Shown here piece by piece: positions 1,893 to 43,649 of a stretch of DNA of 64,000 nucleotides. This DNA is from Candidatus Methylomirabilota bacterium (GTDB lineage: Bacteria; Methylomirabilota; Methylomirabilia; Methylomirabilales; CSP1-5): contig JAPUFX010000066.1 of assembly GCA_027293415.1 (NCBI GenBank), positions 9,779 through 73,778 of the forward strand, written 5' to 3'. Under the pieces are notes generated by a model that had not been told where the DNA came from, searched no databases, and saw only the letters and a list, made by a program, of their open reading frames with translations. The stretch's first letter is position 1; each line of letters begins with the position of its first letter. A program made the translations under genes and the position numbers.

Positions 1893-2909
1893 GTGATATC
1901 AGCACAAGTTGTCAGGGGACTCTTCGTGGTCCTCTGCGGCCTTGTCGGCTTGGCGGCGGGATCGGTTTTCAAGTCCGAGAACCCGTATCTGCTCTTCGGT
2001 CTCGGCGGCGGGGTGGCCGCGGGCGTGGGCGCACTCCTCGTAGAGTGGGTCCTGAGACGAGTCCAGATCAAAGCCCTCATCAGCGGTATTATTGGTCTCT
2101 TTATCGGACTCTTTCTCGCCCGGTGGCTCCTCGACACTCTGGCGGTCCTCTTGGACCCCTTGGCCCAGCCGGTCCGGAGCTTCCTCGAGTTGCTCTTCAT
2201 GGTTGCCGTAGGCTACGTCGCTGCTGCAGTGGCAGTGGAGAAGGGAGGGGGACTCGGCATCCATGACCTGCTCCGTGCGGTGAAAGAGCAGCCTCGTTTC
2301 GAACGAAACAAGATCCTGGACACCTCGGTCATCATCGACGGCCGGATCGCCGACATCTGCGAGACGGGCTTCATGGAGGGGACGCTTATCATCCCTCAGT
2401 TTGTCCTCCGTGAGCTCCAGCACATCGCGGACTCTTCGGACCCGATCAAGCGGAATCGGGGACGGCGAGGATTAGACATCCTGCAAAAAATCCAGAAGAA
2501 TACCGATGTTCAGGTAAGGATCCACGACATGGACTTCCCGGACATCCGGGAGGTCGATGGCAAGTTGGTGGCTATGGCCAAAGCCCTCACGGCGAAGGTC
2601 GTAACCAACGATTTCAATTTGAATAAGGTAGCCGAACTCCATGGAGTGCCGGTGCTGAATATCAATGAACTGACGAATGCCCTCCGACCAGTGGTCCTTC
2701 CCGGCGAGGAGATCCGCATCTACGTGCTCAAGGAGGGGAAGGAGTACAACCAAGGGGTGGCATATCTGGATGATGGAACCATGGTCGTCATCGACAACGG
2801 CCGCCGGCACATCGGTCAGACCATCGATGTGTGTGTCACCTCGGTGCTCCAAACAACGGCGGGGCGGATGATTTTTTCCCGGCTCAAGGAAGAGGCCGAA
2901 GCTGCGTGA
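1893..2909 (+). CDS. Membrane-anchored PIN and TRAM domain protein (YacL-like)
   Basis: 338 aa. Hydrophobic N-terminal segments, a PIN-like core (ILDTSVIIDGRI...) and a TRAM-like C-terminus. Its position between radA and ispD matches Bacillus yacL. Confidence 0.75.
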   Translation: MISAQVVRGLFVVLCGLVGLAAGSVFKSENPYLLFGLGGGVAAGVGALLVEWVLRRVQIKALISGIIGLFIGLFLARWLLDTLAVLLDPLAQPVRSFLELLFMVAVGYVAAAVAVEKGGGLGIHDLLRAVKEQPRFERNKILDTSVIIDGRIADICETGFMEGTLIIPQFVLRELQHIADSSDPIKRNRGRRGLDILQKIQKNTDVQVRIHDMDFPDIREVDGKLVAMAKALTAKVVTNDFNLNKVAELHGVPVLNINELTNALRPVVLPGEEIRIYVLKEGKEYNQGVAYLDDGTMVVIDNGRRHIGQTIDVCVTSVLQTTAGRMIFSRLKEEAEAA

Positions 2910-22862: not shown

Positions 22863-24941
22863 GTGACGGTTAAGGTAGCCAAGGATCGCATTCGAAATAT
22901 CGGGATTATGGCCCACATCGATGCGGGGAAGACGACCACCACCGAACGCGTCCTTTACTATACCGGGAGGACGCACCGAATGGGCGAGGTGGATAGCGGA
23001 TCCGCAGAGATGGATTGGATGGAGCAGGAGAAAGAGCGAGGGATCACTATCACGTCCGCCTCCACCACCTGCTTCTGGCGCGATTATCAAATCAATATTA
23101 TCGATACCCCAGGGCACGTCGACTTCACTGTAGAGGTCGAGCGGTCGCTCCGGGTCCTGGACGGGGCTGTGATGATCTTCGATGCGGTTGCTGGGGTGGA
23201 ACCGCAGTCAGAGACGGTCTGGCGGCAGGCGGACAAGTATCACGTGCCTCGCGTCGCGTTCGTCAACAAAATGGACCGGGTTGGGGCTGACTTCTTCATG
23301 TCGGTGGGGTCCATCGCCGAGCGGCTCGGGGCGCATCCAGTGCCGATGCAGCTCCCACTAGGACAGGAGGCGAGCTATGCTGGCGTCATCGATTTGATCC
23401 GGATGCAAGCCATCGTCTGGGAGGAGGAGTCCTTAGGGGCCGAGTTTCAGATGAGAGAGATTCCTTCGGAGTGTACGGATCAGGCCCTGCAGTACCGCGA
23501 AAAGCTCCTGGAGGCGGTCGCGGAACAGGACGAGTCCTTGCTTCGCAAGTATGTCGAGGGGCGGGAGATCTCGGAACAGGAAATTCGGGCGGCGATCCGT
23601 AAGGCAACATTGGCCCTGAAAATCACACCGGTCATCTGTGGGGCCTCTTTCAGAAATAAGGGAGTTCAACCCTTGCTGGACGCGGTTGTGGATTATCTAC
23701 CCTCGCCCGTGGATCTCCCTCCGGTCACCGGGGTGAATCCCAAGACGGGTGAGGAAGAGAAACGATCGCCGGTCGATGAGGAACCACTGGCCGCTTTGGC
23801 CTTCAAGCTCGTGGCTGACCCCTACGTCGGTCAGCTCTGTTATTTTCGGGTGTATTCCGGAACCATGGAGTCCGGCACCTCCGTCTATAATCCCACCAGG
23901 CGGGTTCGAGAACGGATCGGCCGCCTCCTCCGAATGCACGCCAACAAGCGCGAAGAGGTGAAGAGCGTTCAGGCGGGGAACATCGCCGCTGCCGTCGGCC
24001 TGAAAAGTGCCAAGACGGGTGATACCCTGTGCAATGAAGGTCACCAGATCTTGCTTGAGGCCATTGAGTTTCCGACGCCGGTCCTTTCGGTGGCCATCGA
24101 GCCCAAGACCAAAGAGGGGGCCGAAAGACTTTCCCTCGCACTTCAGGCCTTGGCCAATGAGGATCCCACGTTCCAGACCCGGGGGGACGAGGAGACCGGC
24201 CAGACCATCATTTCTGGCATGGGAGAACTTCACCTCGAGATCATCGTGGATCGCCTCCTCCGGGAGTTCAAGGTGGAAGCCAACGTCGGGCGGCCTCAGG
24301 TGGCTTACCGCGAGACCATCACGCGTCCAGTCGAGGTGGAAAAGAAGTTCGTCCGGCAGACCGGAGGCCGGGGGCAGTACGCCCATGTCTACCTTCACGT
24401 GGAGCCCCAGCAGGCTGGGAGTGGCTTTCGGTTTGAGAAGAAGATTGTGGGAGGGGCGATCCCCCGGGAGTTCATCCCGGCAGTAGAGAAGGGGGTCCGG
24501 GAGGCAGCCGAGAGCGGGATGCTGGCCGGCTATCCGGTGGTCGACATCACGGTGACGCTGACCGACGGATCCTACCATGAGGTAGACTCCTCCGATCTGG
24601 CGTTCAAGATTGCCGGCTCCATGGCTTTCAAGGACGCGGTAAAGCAGGGCCACCCGATCCTCCTCGAGCCGGTGGTGCAGGTGGACGTTGTGGTGCCGGA
24701 GGAGTTTCTCGGCGAGGTGATCAGGGATTTGAACTCTCGGCGGGGTCGGGTTGTGGGGATCGAGACGCGGCCGGCGGCTCGGGTTGTGCGGGCGGAGGTT
24801 CCCCTGGCTACCATGTTTGGTTACGCAACCGATATGAGGTCGGCAACCCAGGGCCGGGCAACCTACACCATGCAGTTCGCTCGCTACGAGCCGCTCCCTG
24901 GAAGTCTTGCCGAGGAGATCATGGGGCGGGTGGCCAGTTGA
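22863..24941 (+). CDS. fusA: Elongation factor G
   Basis: 692 aa. [14 protein letters not shown] and NKMD motifs. Sits in the str-operon position. Confidence 0.97.
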
Positions 24942-40374: not shown

Positions 40375-40803
40375 ATGCGGCATCGGAAACTTCGAAGGAA
40401 GCTCGGACGGACTTCGGCTCATCGAGAGGCCTTGCTGCGCAACCTGACGACTTCTCTGCTTCTCTATGAGAAGATCATCACGACTGTCGCTAAGGCCAAG
40501 GAGCTTCGCAAGATCGCGGAGCGGATGATCACGCTGGCCAAACGAAATGATCTGCACGCCCGCCGACAAGCGGCAGACGTAATCCAGAATGAGCGGGTGT
40601 TGAAGAAGCTCTTTGAGACCATCGGCGAGCGGTACCGGGGGCGCAACGGGGGCTACACCCGAATTACCAAGCTCGAGTATCGGGTGGGGGATGGGGCCCC
40701 CCTGGCTGCGGTCGAACTGGTGGGCGCTGAGGTGAGCCCTGAGGTGGCGGCCAAGCGCGGGAAGAAGGAGAAAAAGAAAGAGAAACAAGCCGCTTCCCCC
40801 TAA
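40375..40803 (+). CDS. rplQ: 50S ribosomal protein L17 with a Lys-rich C-terminal tail
   Basis: 142 aa. [24 protein letters not shown]. Tail is [16 protein letters not shown]. Confidence 0.96.
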
Positions 40804-40820
40804 CCCCTTTCGCCACGAGT

Positions 40821-40857
40821 AGCCCTGGAACAACTACGGTTTCAGGGCTTTTCTTTT
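40821..40857 (+). terminator. Rho-independent terminator after rplQ
   Basis: Stem agccctg / cagggct with a 14-nt loop, followed by TTTTCTTTT. Confidence 0.7.
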
Positions 40858-40869
40858 GCCCGGCCTGTG

Positions 40870-41334
40870 CTACTCCTCCTCTATTGTGCCAGTGTACTCG
40901 ATGGCGATCCCCCGCCGTACGCTCTGCGAGGCAGGACACCCCTTCTCATGGATTTCGATCGCCCGCTCAGCGTCCGAACGTTTTCCCTGAGGAACCTTCA
41001 CGTGATAGCGCACGCTGATCTTGGTGATCAGCGGGTGCCCATCGACGTTTTCAATAGAGCCCTCGACCTCTGACCAGAGTTTATCCGGGTGCGTCGGAAT
41101 CTTCCGCGCCGCTAGCGCCACGGCTAGCGTGCCCGTCATTCAGCCCGCCACAGCAGAAATCACGTGATCGAGCGTGGTCGGCAAATCCTCTTCCGGCTCC
41201 ACCCCGTAAAATTTCTTGATCCCGCCGTGGATCCCGTAGTGCACCGGCTCCGTGAATGACTCGATGTAGGCTCGCCGGACCGGCCCTTTGTCTTTGAAGA
41301 TCTTGGTCTTCGAGGTGTGGATCAGTTCTCCCAT
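40870..41334 (-). CDS. OsmC/YhfA-family protein with an in-frame TGA at the conserved Cys position (candidate selenoprotein; track ORFs 41140..41334 and 40870..41139 joined)
   Basis: The two adjacent same-frame minus ORFs read ...DHVISAVAG-TGA-MTGTLAVALAARK... . The second family Cys is present in HEKGCPASQS. A strong SD AGGAGG precedes ATG 41334. The joined length of 154 codons fits the family. Confidence 0.6.
41108..41132 (-). promoter_or_regulatory. SECIS-like mRNA hairpin downstream of the in-frame UGA
   Basis: The mRNA reads UGA AUG ACG GGC A CGCUAGC CGUGGC GCUAGCG GC. A 7-bp perfect stem plus 2 extra pairs starts about 11 nt after the UGA, with G and U in the 6-nt apical loop. Confidence 0.45.
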
Positions 41335-41561
41335 GGTCTCCTCCTGTCTTCAGCGGGGGTCAAACGATCTGCGGGGTGCTTTGCTGGTGGATTTCTACCA
41401 CCGTGTTGGGCGTGGACAAGGTACCAGGCAGGAGTCACCCGCGTCAAGGCAAACATGGTTTTAATTTTTCCCTTTACACCACGACAGGCTGTGTGCTACC
41501 TAGAAGCCCGGGGATTTCCTGCCTGCATCATCAGGTGATGCTGATCATGGGGGGGGATTCC

Positions 41562-43649
41562 ATGAAGGCTTACGAAATCACGCAGATCCGGAATGTGGGG
41601 ATCGTTGCCCATGGACAGGAGGGAAAGACCTCCTTGACGGAGGCAATCCTCTTTGACACCGGGGCGCTGACCCGCCTTGGACGAGTAGAAGAAGGGAATA
41701 CCGCGACCGACTTTGACGAGGGTGAGATCAAGCGGGGGATCAGTATCAGCTCGGCCGTCGCCTTCTGTGAGTGGAAGGGGGTCAAGGTGAATCTCATCGA
41801 TACCCCCGGCTTCTCCAACTTTCTTCCCGACACCCGGATGTGCCTGCGCGTGGCGGATATCGCCCTCATCCTGGTCAGTGCGGTGGACGGGATCAAGGTC
41901 CAGACAGAAAAGGTCTGGGGATATGCGGAGGAGTATGGCCTGCCGGGTGTCTTCTTTGCGAACAAAATGGATCGGGAACGGGCGGATCTTTTTCGTACGG
42001 TCGAGGATATTCGAAAAGGCTTGCATCCCGCAGCCATCCCCTTGCAAATCCCCATAGGGGCCGAGGCTGGCTTCCGCGGGGTGGTGGATCTGTTGGCGAT
42101 GAAGGCGTACACCTTCCAGACCGACGGATCGGGAAAGTTCAAGGAGGAGGAGATACCGGCCGAGCTCAAGGACCGGGCGGGAGAGCTCCAGCATACGCTC
42201 GTTGAGGCGGTGGCGGAGTCGGAAGATAGCTTGCTTGAGCGCTATCTCGAGAGTGGCACGCTGAGCCCCGAAGAGCTGCGGACCGGCATCCGACGGGCTA
42301 TCGCCGCCAGGAAACTCTTCCCCGTCCTTTGCGGGTCGGCGTTAAAGAACATCGGCATCCAGCCTCTACTCGATGTCTTAATCGATATCTGCCCCTCTCC
42401 CTTGGATCGGCCGCTGGTGGAGGGAAAAGACACGAAGTCAAAGGAACGGGTTTCACGGGAGGCGCGGCCAGATGCACCGCTCACGGCGTTGATCTTTAAG
42501 ACCATTGGGGATCCTTACGCCGGCAAGATCAGCGTTTTCCGGGTGTATGCCGGCCGACTGAGTACCGATAGTAGTGTGTATAACGCCGTCAAAGAGACGA
42601 GAGAGCGGATCGGACAGGTATCGCTCCTTCGGGGAAAGCACCAGGTCCCCGTCGACGAAGTGGGCCCGGGAGACATCGGAGCTGTGGTAAAGCTGAAGGA
42701 GACTAGTACAGGGGATACGCTTGCCGACGAAAAATCTTCCATCCTGCTCGACCCCCTCCCTGTGCCCACACCCCTGATTTCTTACGCCATCGCTCCCAAG
42801 TCCAAAGGAGATGAGGAAAAACTGTCTGGGGCCTTAAGCCGCCTCCTGGAAGAGGACCCTAGCCTTAAGGTGAGCCGGGACCAGCAGACCAAGGAGACCA
42901 TTATCTCCGGAATGGGGAAGGTCCACTTGGAGGTGGCGGTGGAACGACTCAAGCGGAGGTTCGGCGTAGACGTCGCCATGAAGACCCCTCGTGTACCGTA
43001 CAAGGAGACGATCCGGGGGACCGCCTCCGTGCAGGGGAAATACAAAAAACAAACGGGGGGCCGTGGACAATACGGCGACTGCTGGATCAAGCTCGAGCCC
43101 ATGCCGCGGGGTGAGAAATACGAATTTGCCAATCAGATCGTCGGCGGGGTGATCCCCAGACAATACATCCCGGCCGTGGAGAAGGGGGTCGTGGAGGCGA
43201 TGGAACGAGGGGTCTTGGCCGGCTATCCCGTGACCGGCGTCAAGGTGAGCCTCTATGATGGATCGTTCCATTCAGTGGACTCTTCGGAGATGGCCTTTAA
43301 GATCGCCGGCTCCATGGCCTTGAAGAAGGGGGTTCAACAGGCCACCCCCATCCTTCTCGAACCGATTATGGCGGTCGAGGTGAGCGCCCCCGACGATGCG
43401 ATCGGGGATGTGATCGGCGATCTCAATTCTCGGCGGGGGCGGGTCATGGGGGTAGAGGGCAGGAGCAAGGGCCAGGTCATCAAGACGCTCGTCCCTCTCG
43501 CGGAAATGCTGGAGTATGCCCCCCAGCTGCGTTCCCTGACCGCAGATCGGGGAGACTACACCATGGAGTTTTCGCATTACGAGGAAGTTCCGGCCCACAT
43601 CCAGGAAAAGCTGGTGGCCGAGGCCAAGCAGGAAGAAAAAGGGGCCTAA
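41562..43649 (+). CDS. Elongation factor G paralog (EF-G2-like translational GTPase)
   Basis: ATG 41562. 695 aa with G motifs AHGQEGKTS, DTPGF and NKMD, and EF-G domains II-V. Clearly diverged from the str-operon fusA. The track start 41376 is a spurious extension. Confidence 0.85.
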   Translation: MKAYEITQIRNVGIVAHGQEGKTSLTEAILFDTGALTRLGRVEEGNTATDFDEGEIKRGISISSAVAFCEWKGVKVNLIDTPGFSNFLPDTRMCLRVADIALILVSAVDGIKVQTEKVWGYAEEYGLPGVFFANKMDRERADLFRTVEDIRKGLHPAAIPLQIPIGAEAGFRGVVDLLAMKAYTFQTDGSGKFKEEEIPAELKDRAGELQHTLVEAVAESEDSLLERYLESGTLSPEELRTGIRRAIAARKLFPVLCGSALKNIGIQPLLDVLIDICPSPLDRPLVEGKDTKSKERVSREARPDAPLTALIFKTIGDPYAGKISVFRVYAGRLSTDSSVYNAVKETRERIGQVSLLRGKHQVPVDEVGPGDIGAVVKLKETSTGDTLADEKSSILLDPLPVPTPLISYAIAPKSKGDEEKLSGALSRLLEEDPSLKVSRDQQTKETIISGMGKVHLEVAVERLKRRFGVDVAMKTPRVPYKETIRGTASVQGKYKKQTGGRGQYGDCWIKLEPMPRGEKYEFANQIVGGVIPRQYIPAVEKGVVEAMERGVLAGYPVTGVKVSLYDGSFHSVDSSEMAFKIAGSMALKKGVQQATPILLEPIMAVEVSAPDDAIGDVIGDLNSRRGRVMGVEGRSKGQVIKTLVPLAEMLEYAPQLRSLTADRGDYTMEFSHYEEVPAHIQEKLVAEAKQEEKGA

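Follow-up and report, generated by a model that had tools for sequence, protein, structure and literature searches.

Does the hairpin that follows an in-frame TGA in an OsmC-family gene of a Candidatus Methylomirabilota bacterium direct the insertion of selenocysteine (Sec) at that codon, or is it a by-product of the codons that it is built from? The gene lies on the minus strand of a 64,000-nucleotide stretch, here called the window, of contig JAPUFX010000066.1 (GenBank assembly GCA_027293415.1, positions 9,779 to 73,778). On the comparisons described below we consider it probable, at about 0.85, that the hairpin is a functional bacterial Sec insertion sequence (SECIS) located inside the gene of an OsmC-family thiol peroxidase. 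This assignment is supported by all the computational tests except the gene-specific Rfam models and strict covariation within the window's own class of hairpin.

Two open reading frames (ORFs) of 64 and 89 codons make up the frame of the OsmC gene, and only a single TGA parts them. The elements of the gene are located as follows.

40870..41334, minus strand: predicted OsmC-family selenoprotein gene of 154 codons, with its ATG at 41334-41332, its stop at 40872-40870 and the in-frame TGA as codon 65
41340..41345, minus strand: Shine-Dalgarno-like AGGAGG, read from the sequence, 5 nucleotides (nt) upstream of the ATG at 41334
41142-41140, minus strand: in-frame UGA, the predicted Sec codon (residue 65), aligned with the first catalytic Cys of OsmC
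40936..40938, minus strand: TGT codon of Cys133, the second (resolving) active-site Cys, in a GCP motif, invariant in family alignments

When the two halves are joined, with Cys placed at the TGA, the 154-residue product matches the Pfam family PF02566 (OsmC) with 48.6 bits against a cut-off of 27.5, and the match covers residues 51–147, spanning the TGA. Residue 65 and Cys133 align with both catalytic Cys residues of the OsmC structures 1UKK and 1QWI, Cys133 falling on the Cys of their GCPVS sequence. The predicted peptide around Sec65 is AVAG-U-MTGTLAVALAAR, and the local active-site motif is U-M-T-G-T. The AGGAGG that precedes the ATG at 41334 favours a start at the upstream ORF over one at the ATG that follows the TGA.

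Comparison with related genes indicates that the TGA is read as a codon. Of the ∼400 relatives obtained in a protein search, about a dozen are full-length and the others are C-terminal fragments of 89–90 residues that start right after the TGA; most of the full-length relatives have Cys at the position aligned with residue 65. At the DNA level 160 related loci were compared, comprising the best 80 reference-genome loci and 80 metagenome loci found with a Cys-form query. Codon 65 is TGA in 144 of the 160: in 80/80 of the best reference-genome loci and in 64/80 of the metagenome loci, of which the other 16 have TGT or TGC. The TGA is aligned with TGT or TGC in 17 Cys-form loci. Record titles place the 80 reference-genome loci in Methylomirabilota/NC10, Rokubacteria, Acidobacteria including Bryobacterales, Nitrospinota, Tectomicrobia and Anaerolineae. 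Relative to the window gene, the ratio of non-synonymous to synonymous divergence (dN/dS) is 0.13 for codons 1–64 and 0.16 for codons 66–153, at a synonymous divergence (dS) of ∼1.3–1.4, and the low values on either side of the TGA argue that both halves are translated in one frame. The codon past the TGA is CTG, CTT, CTC or CTA in 23 of the 40 unique Sec forms outside the window's hairpin class, and in the Cys forms the codon after residue 65 is TTG, CTG or CTA; its being CTN in many lineages speaks against re-initiation there.

Two records with another residue at this position were inspected. Public protein P0003, considered as a Trp-type homologue, was rejected as such, its DNA (L162:373-375) being TGA; it had apparently been called with a code in which TGA specifies Trp. 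A homologue with 76% identity and Gly at this site (public protein P0001; L161:849-851, ENA contig k141_1497368) has a genuine GGA at the Sec codon, on one contig, and the hairpin downstream is fully intact. Either an error of sequencing or a mutation that changed the catalytic residue very recently might account for the GGA.

On the mRNA, read from the minus strand, the sequence around the codon is ...GCG GGC UGA AUG ACG GGC ACG CUA GCC GUG GCG CUA GCG GCG CGG AAG, and the following elements are predicted within it.

41108..41132, minus strand: predicted SECIS hairpin, with a 7-bp core helix (41129-41123/41116-41110) and two further G-C pairs over a bulged A41130
41117..41122, minus strand: apical loop CGUGGC, with G41121 and U41120 as the predicted SelB contact

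The core helix is formed by a 5′ arm CGCUAGC (41129-41123) and a 3′ arm GCUAGCG (41116-41110), and the outer pairs G41132-C41108 and C41131-G41109 flank the bulged A41130. This hairpin is the minimum-energy fold given by RNAfold, with −10.4 kcal/mol for the core hairpin and −14.9 kcal/mol for the 27-nt segment that includes the extra pairs. The original prediction, which had been made from the window's letters, placed the hairpin at 41108–41132 with these stem and loop sequences and with two G-C pairs over a bulged A, and both the sequence and RNAfold agree with it. Its estimate that the helix base lies ∼11 nt past the UGA requires correction, the core stem beginning 10 nt and the extended helix 7 nt past the codon. 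The loop G and U, which it put ∼22–23 nt after the UGA, are indeed nt 22 and 23 if counted from the U of the UGA, but lie 19–20 nt past the codon itself. The likeness that it drew to the geometry of the E. coli fdhF SECIS is borne out, the equivalents in fdhF being G23 and U24. A second small hairpin (GGCGCGG AAGA UUCCGACGC), folded by RNAfold at 41091-41109 on the minus strand, nt 34–52 past the UGA, is absent from most relatives.

The generic description of bacterial SECIS (bSECIS) elements used here follows Zhang & Gladyshev in the form given by PMC13188914. It specifies a loop of 3–9 nt, a stem of 4–16 bp, a spacing of 16–37 nt and an energy of ≤ −7.5 kcal/mol, and requires a G in the first two loop positions that is usually followed by G or U (PMC13188914 Fig. 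2), the loop pattern being N1-G-[G|U]-N-N2-N (PMC13188914). What was applied is a simplified, stricter re-implementation that takes uninterrupted stems only, not the published bSECISearch program. The window hairpin passes: its spacing is 17, its loop 6 nt, its stem 7 bp and its energy −10.4 kcal/mol. Its loop CGUGGC fits the consensus pattern, with C·G as N1/N2 and GU at loop positions 2–3, so that the UGA aligned with Cys, the sizes of loop and stem, the loop G, the spacing and the energy all agree with the bSECIS description.

How readily such a hairpin arises from the peptide was gauged against synonymous recodings and against the rest of the window. In the window's long ORFs, 7% of codon positions precede a hairpin that passes the model, and 1.4% precede one as stable. 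The window's own peptide passes in 25–31% of its recodings and passes with equal stability in 6–9%; the codon-driven baseline, taken from synonymous recoding, is 10–32%. The actual structure is far less readily reached: the minimum free energy (MFE) of the 27-nt segment is attained by 0.2% of synonymous recodings of the same peptide, and the identical 7-bp helix is recreated in 0.75%. Both stem Leu codons are CTA, a codon that accounts for 3% of the Leu codons in the window.

Selection on the structure is evident in the window's hairpin class, defined as the 63 unique relatives that share its local peptide. Of these, 48 have every pair of the helix, and 60 do so if the outermost pair is disregarded. 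Pairing holds in 95% of pair cells over the 64 unique sequences of the class. In the loop, G22 never varies, and all 63 relatives have G or U at position 23. Stem codons differ from their neighbours in their third positions: Thr69, in the stem, is ACG in 55/58 sequences, whereas Thr67, outside it, is ACC in 39/58; Ala73 is GCG in 57/58, contrary to the general preference for GCC; and the third positions of the two stem Leu codons are A or G, opposite U, in 56/58 and 58/58 sequences, with about half of these codons being the rare CTA. In 40 unique full genes, third positions have an entropy of 0.65 bit in stem codons, as against 1.30 bit in 52 other conserved degenerate codons (p = 4.5e-4). Third positions in the stem are fixed to the base needed for pairing, contrary to the codon preference at large. 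An origin of the two GCTAGC palindromes as restriction sites was considered and rejected, about half of the relatives having GCTGGC, which still pairs through G·U.

Clades with a different local peptide have different hairpins at this place. In many Acidobacteria, Nitrospinota and others the hairpin is GCGCGC-UGGAR-GCGCGC, located 8 nt further downstream and 96.7% paired. This class includes two compensatory pairs, one a change from C-G to U-A (L051) and the other from G-C to A-U (L060, L073 and L162), with a G-U intermediate. The Bryobacterales hairpin is CUGUCAGG-GGC-CCUGGCAG, with a GGC apex. In all three hairpins an apical closing pair is followed by G-(G/U)-N, the consensus motif, and the conserved apical G is found at nt 22, 24 or 30. 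These alignments suggest that clades with another local peptide evolved other hairpins with the same apical motif and that a coding-region SECIS may be replaced in orthologues while its apical motif stays.

The structure also largely follows the identity of codon 65. The simplified model is passed by 108 of 115 unique TGA forms (94%) but by only 5 of 17 Cys forms (∼29%), a rate close to the recoding baseline of 10–32%. Against the synonymous-recoding null, Sec forms have a mean MFE z-score of −1.53 and Cys forms one of −0.24 (p = 3.6e-4), in a comparison whose sequences are not phylogenetically independent. The set of 17 Cys-form DNA sequences leaves out P0002, the sole Cys form with the window's local peptide MTGTLAGALAARK; a second protein search gave no further Cys form with that peptide. 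Among the Cys forms, the clade L081–L089 is 75–82% identical to the Sec forms L093–L095. Its hairpin is a weakened copy in which GGC...CGC has become GGU...CGU, so that two G-C pairs are now G-U. In the more distant Cys clade L090–L101 the hairpin is lost. The weakened hairpin of L081–L089 fits a relic of a recent change from Sec to Cys, and beside L093–L095 and L098 the two Cys clades give the appearance of a SECIS that decays step by step once Cys has replaced Sec.

Several results weigh against the assignment as a SECIS and have to be set beside this evidence. The evidence from the single sequence is modest. Ala, Leu, Gly and Arg abound in the peptide past the UGA, which is intrinsically prone to form hairpins: ∼20–30% of synonymous recodings of Sec-form peptides pass the simplified model, and dinucleotide shuffles of a 61-nt segment give z = −1.2, with 22 of 200 shuffles folding equally well, a test that is uninformative. 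The Rfam models SECIS_2 and SECIS_3 (RF01988 and RF01989) give no match at E ≤ 10 in 40800–41400, while E. coli fdhF, as positive control, scores 87.1 bits on SECIS_2; the hairpin is outside the Rfam gene-specific SECIS families, yet it fits the generic structural consensus. The simplified model itself rejects E. coli fdhF, whose stem is bulged, and given that rejection it is conservative. Within the window's class the loop U is not conserved, with G at position 23 in about half of the relatives, and no two-sided compensatory change is found there, the only changes being of A/G opposite U, which are compatible with the helix and support nothing further. The Cys clade L081–L089, and L165, still bear a hairpin that passes the model, and the MFE of the whole segment fails to separate L081–L089 from the nearest Sec forms; the retained hairpin of L081–L089 equally shows a peptide that favours hairpins. 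Lastly, tRNA and Rfam scans, with Pfam searches on ten large ORFs, find no selA, selB, selD or tRNA-Sec in the 64-kb window. Since a single hairpin is weak evidence in a GC-rich stretch coding for Ala, Leu and Gly, the case rests on the comparative data.

As an alternative, the hairpin might be a by-product of Thr-Leu-Ala-x-Ala-Leu-Ala, which in a GC-rich genome yields GCN/CUN repeats; it would then have no recoding role, and any Sec insertion would use another determinant. In five of the seven core pairs at least one base does fall on a first or second codon position that is fixed, and the pass rates of recodings and of other coding positions in the window, the modest shuffle score, the lack of compensatory covariation in the window's class and the hairpins retained by some Cys forms and by the Gly variant L161 are all in keeping with such an origin. 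It does not explain why the rare CTA is used twice, why a helix recreated in 0.75% of recodings is complete in 48/63 relatives at dS > 1, or why the stem third positions oppose the codon preference, at half the entropy found elsewhere in the gene. Nor would it predict that Sec forms pass so much more often than Cys forms, or that clades with different local peptides have different hairpins and the same apical motif, and we regard it as improbable. The original prediction had allowed that the palindromic stem could be fortuitous, which is a fair caution for one sequence and fails for the family. The computational checks that it had proposed were all made, and most of them favour a SECIS. Scoring with bacterial SECIS models gives agreement with the generic bSECIS consensus and no match to the two Rfam models. 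The expectation that TGA forms keep and Cys forms lack the hairpin holds for the forms as a whole, and is breached by the weakened hairpin of L081–L089. Covariation is found as the two compensatory pairs of the alternative class, and not in the class of the window. A conserved RNA structure with some other role, such as local mRNA stability, a ribosome pause that helps the active-site helix to fold, or slowed termination at the UGA, would satisfy the constraint on synonymous sites as well, because that constraint reveals a selected structure and not its function, and the contact with SelB is a predicted one. Such a role would leave unexplained that the structure tracks the TGA, almost all Sec forms having it and Cys forms having it at about the rate of the baseline; that in position, in size and in its apical G-(G/U) motif it matches bacterial SECIS elements; and that three helices in three clades converge on one apical motif with spacing within 16–37 nt. 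We therefore think such another role very unlikely.

The remaining alternatives concern the TGA rather than the hairpin. Were it a true stop, the locus would encode polypeptides of 64 and 89 residues, with re-initiation at UGAAUG and a hairpin that might modulate their coupling. An ATG does stand directly past the TGA in the window, and the 89-residue ORF is annotated by public gene callers in hundreds of genomes. The residue after the TGA, though, is a conserved Met/Leu position and not a start codon, as its CTN codons in Sec forms and TTG, CTG or CTA in Cys forms make clear; the TGA stands exactly at the catalytic Cys of the Cys-form homologues and OsmC structures; the OsmC domain runs over both halves; and it is the upstream start that has AGGAGG, the internal ATG being without a Shine-Dalgarno sequence. 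On this evidence a two-polypeptide arrangement is most improbable. A pseudogene, or a TGA produced by an assembly or sequencing error, is barely credible: the GGA of L161 indicates that single-base variation at the site exists, but the TGA recurs in 144 loci that were assembled independently and come from several phyla, the frame has no other stop, and dN/dS is ∼0.13–0.16 on either side. We conclude that the pseudogene, sequencing-error and two-polypeptide readings are effectively excluded.

With the hairpin taken as a SECIS, the following course of translation can be proposed. Translation would begin at the ATG at 41334, behind the AGGAGG ribosome-binding site. When the ribosome reached UGA65, the hairpin 10 nt downstream would still be folded and would display its apical C-G-U-G-G-C loop. 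SelB, carrying GTP and Sec-tRNASec, would bind this loop through its C-terminal winged-helix domain and deliver Sec-tRNASec to the A site, outcompeting release factor 2, so that the UGA would be read as Sec. The ribosome would then melt the hairpin as it read Thr-Leu-Ala-Val-Ala-Leu-Ala. The product would be a 154-residue OsmC-like protein, with Sec65 in place of the first active-site Cys and Cys133 as the partner thiol. In this course SelB binding, actual Sec insertion and peroxidase activity are inferred. As the window contains no Sec machinery, the Sec competence of the organism is deduced from its phylum, in which one metagenome-assembled genome has 63 predicted selenoprotein genes (PMC13188914). 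The window was also scanned for ORFs split by TGA. The 113 candidates so obtained seem on inspection, not individually verified, to be spurious frames or adjacent genes, and no second selenoprotein gene is evident.

The genomic setting is that of a housekeeping block, the rest of the window containing tRNAs, rpoB/C, ribosomal-protein operons, rpoA, rplQ, nusA, infB, cysS and others. The OsmC gene is a lone minus-strand gene in a long plus-strand block, between rplQ and a paralogue of EF-G, a placement common to the closest relatives only (L001–L003, L155 and partly L012). This second EF-G-type GTPase (41559-43649, plus strand) has the full set of EF-G domains and is divergent from the OsmC gene; the ORF at 22863-24941 is a putative fusA, assigned by position only. 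Just past rplQ, and before the convergent OsmC gene, an 11-bp hairpin followed by TTTCTTTT (40821-40849, plus strand) is probably the rplQ intrinsic terminator; it has a weak look-alike match to ctRNA_p42d (E = 0.088, far under the gathering score). Elsewhere, with housekeeping genes around it, an ORF of 338 residues with a PIN domain (1893-2909, plus strand) is flanked by a KaiC/AAA-ATPase-domain gene, for which a RadA-like reading was made, and by ispD.

For annotation, the locus would be corrected from an 89-residue OsmC fragment to one selenoprotein of 154 residues, as would hundreds of database entries from bacteria of soil and groundwater. The names seen for this subfamily are of the type ‘OsmC family protein’ on 89-residue entries, with no selenoprotein label. 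Some 90% of the loci found carry TGA, and ∼12 full-length Cys-type entries occur among the ∼400 database matches. These proportions are consistent with an uncatalogued, Sec-dominant OsmC subfamily in which different codons have served to rebuild the SECIS at least three times while its apical G-(G/U) was kept, a proposal that we advance tentatively and hold at slightly under even odds. If true, the subfamily would be a natural series on the tolerance of SelB for spacing and helix identity, and a Sec-dominant peroxidase-like family would be added to phyla reported to have very large selenoproteomes. The hairpin-prone peptide illustrates, in addition, how unreliable SECIS calls from a single sequence are in GC-rich genomes. 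Both the mechanism of Sec recoding and this type of family are already known, and the understanding of recoding is unchanged.

Among known systems, the hairpin resembles the consensus bSECIS element in being a stem-loop directly 3′ of the Sec UGA, within the coding sequence, and it departs from the model in no respect. With the SECIS of E. coli fdhF (RF01988) it shares a position ∼10–11 nt past the UGA and a GU in the apical loop, but no similarity in sequence or to the covariance model. Its loop is CGUGGC, of 6 nt, where fdhF has GGUC; the unpaired base is A13 at the base of the core helix, whereas in fdhF it is the bulged U17; and about half of the window's relatives have G in place of the loop U. 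The predicted protein has the OsmC domain of the OsmC/Ohr thiol peroxidases (PF02566; 1UKK, 1QWI, 1NYE) and keeps both catalytic positions, but its first Cys is encoded by UGA and its similarity to characterised OsmC proteins is low (E ∼1e-5); scores for the subfamilies TIGR03562 and TIGR03561 are far under their cut-offs. OsmC-like selenoproteins with a predicted SECIS were described from the Sargasso Sea in 2005, as COG1765 YhfA-like proteins with the motif UxxT (PMC1088965). The protein of the window is like these Sargasso Sea and Global Ocean Sampling (GOS) proteins (PMC1088965, PMC9312934) in belonging to the OsmC superfamily, in having Sec for the first active-site Cys and in having a predicted bSECIS element. 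It differs from them in its motif, U-M-T-G-T as against UxxT, and it scores 19.5 bits (E = 7e-4) on NCBIfam NF041052 (OsmC_like_Se), for which the cut-off is 95. The low score and the differing motif together point to a separate OsmC subfamily.

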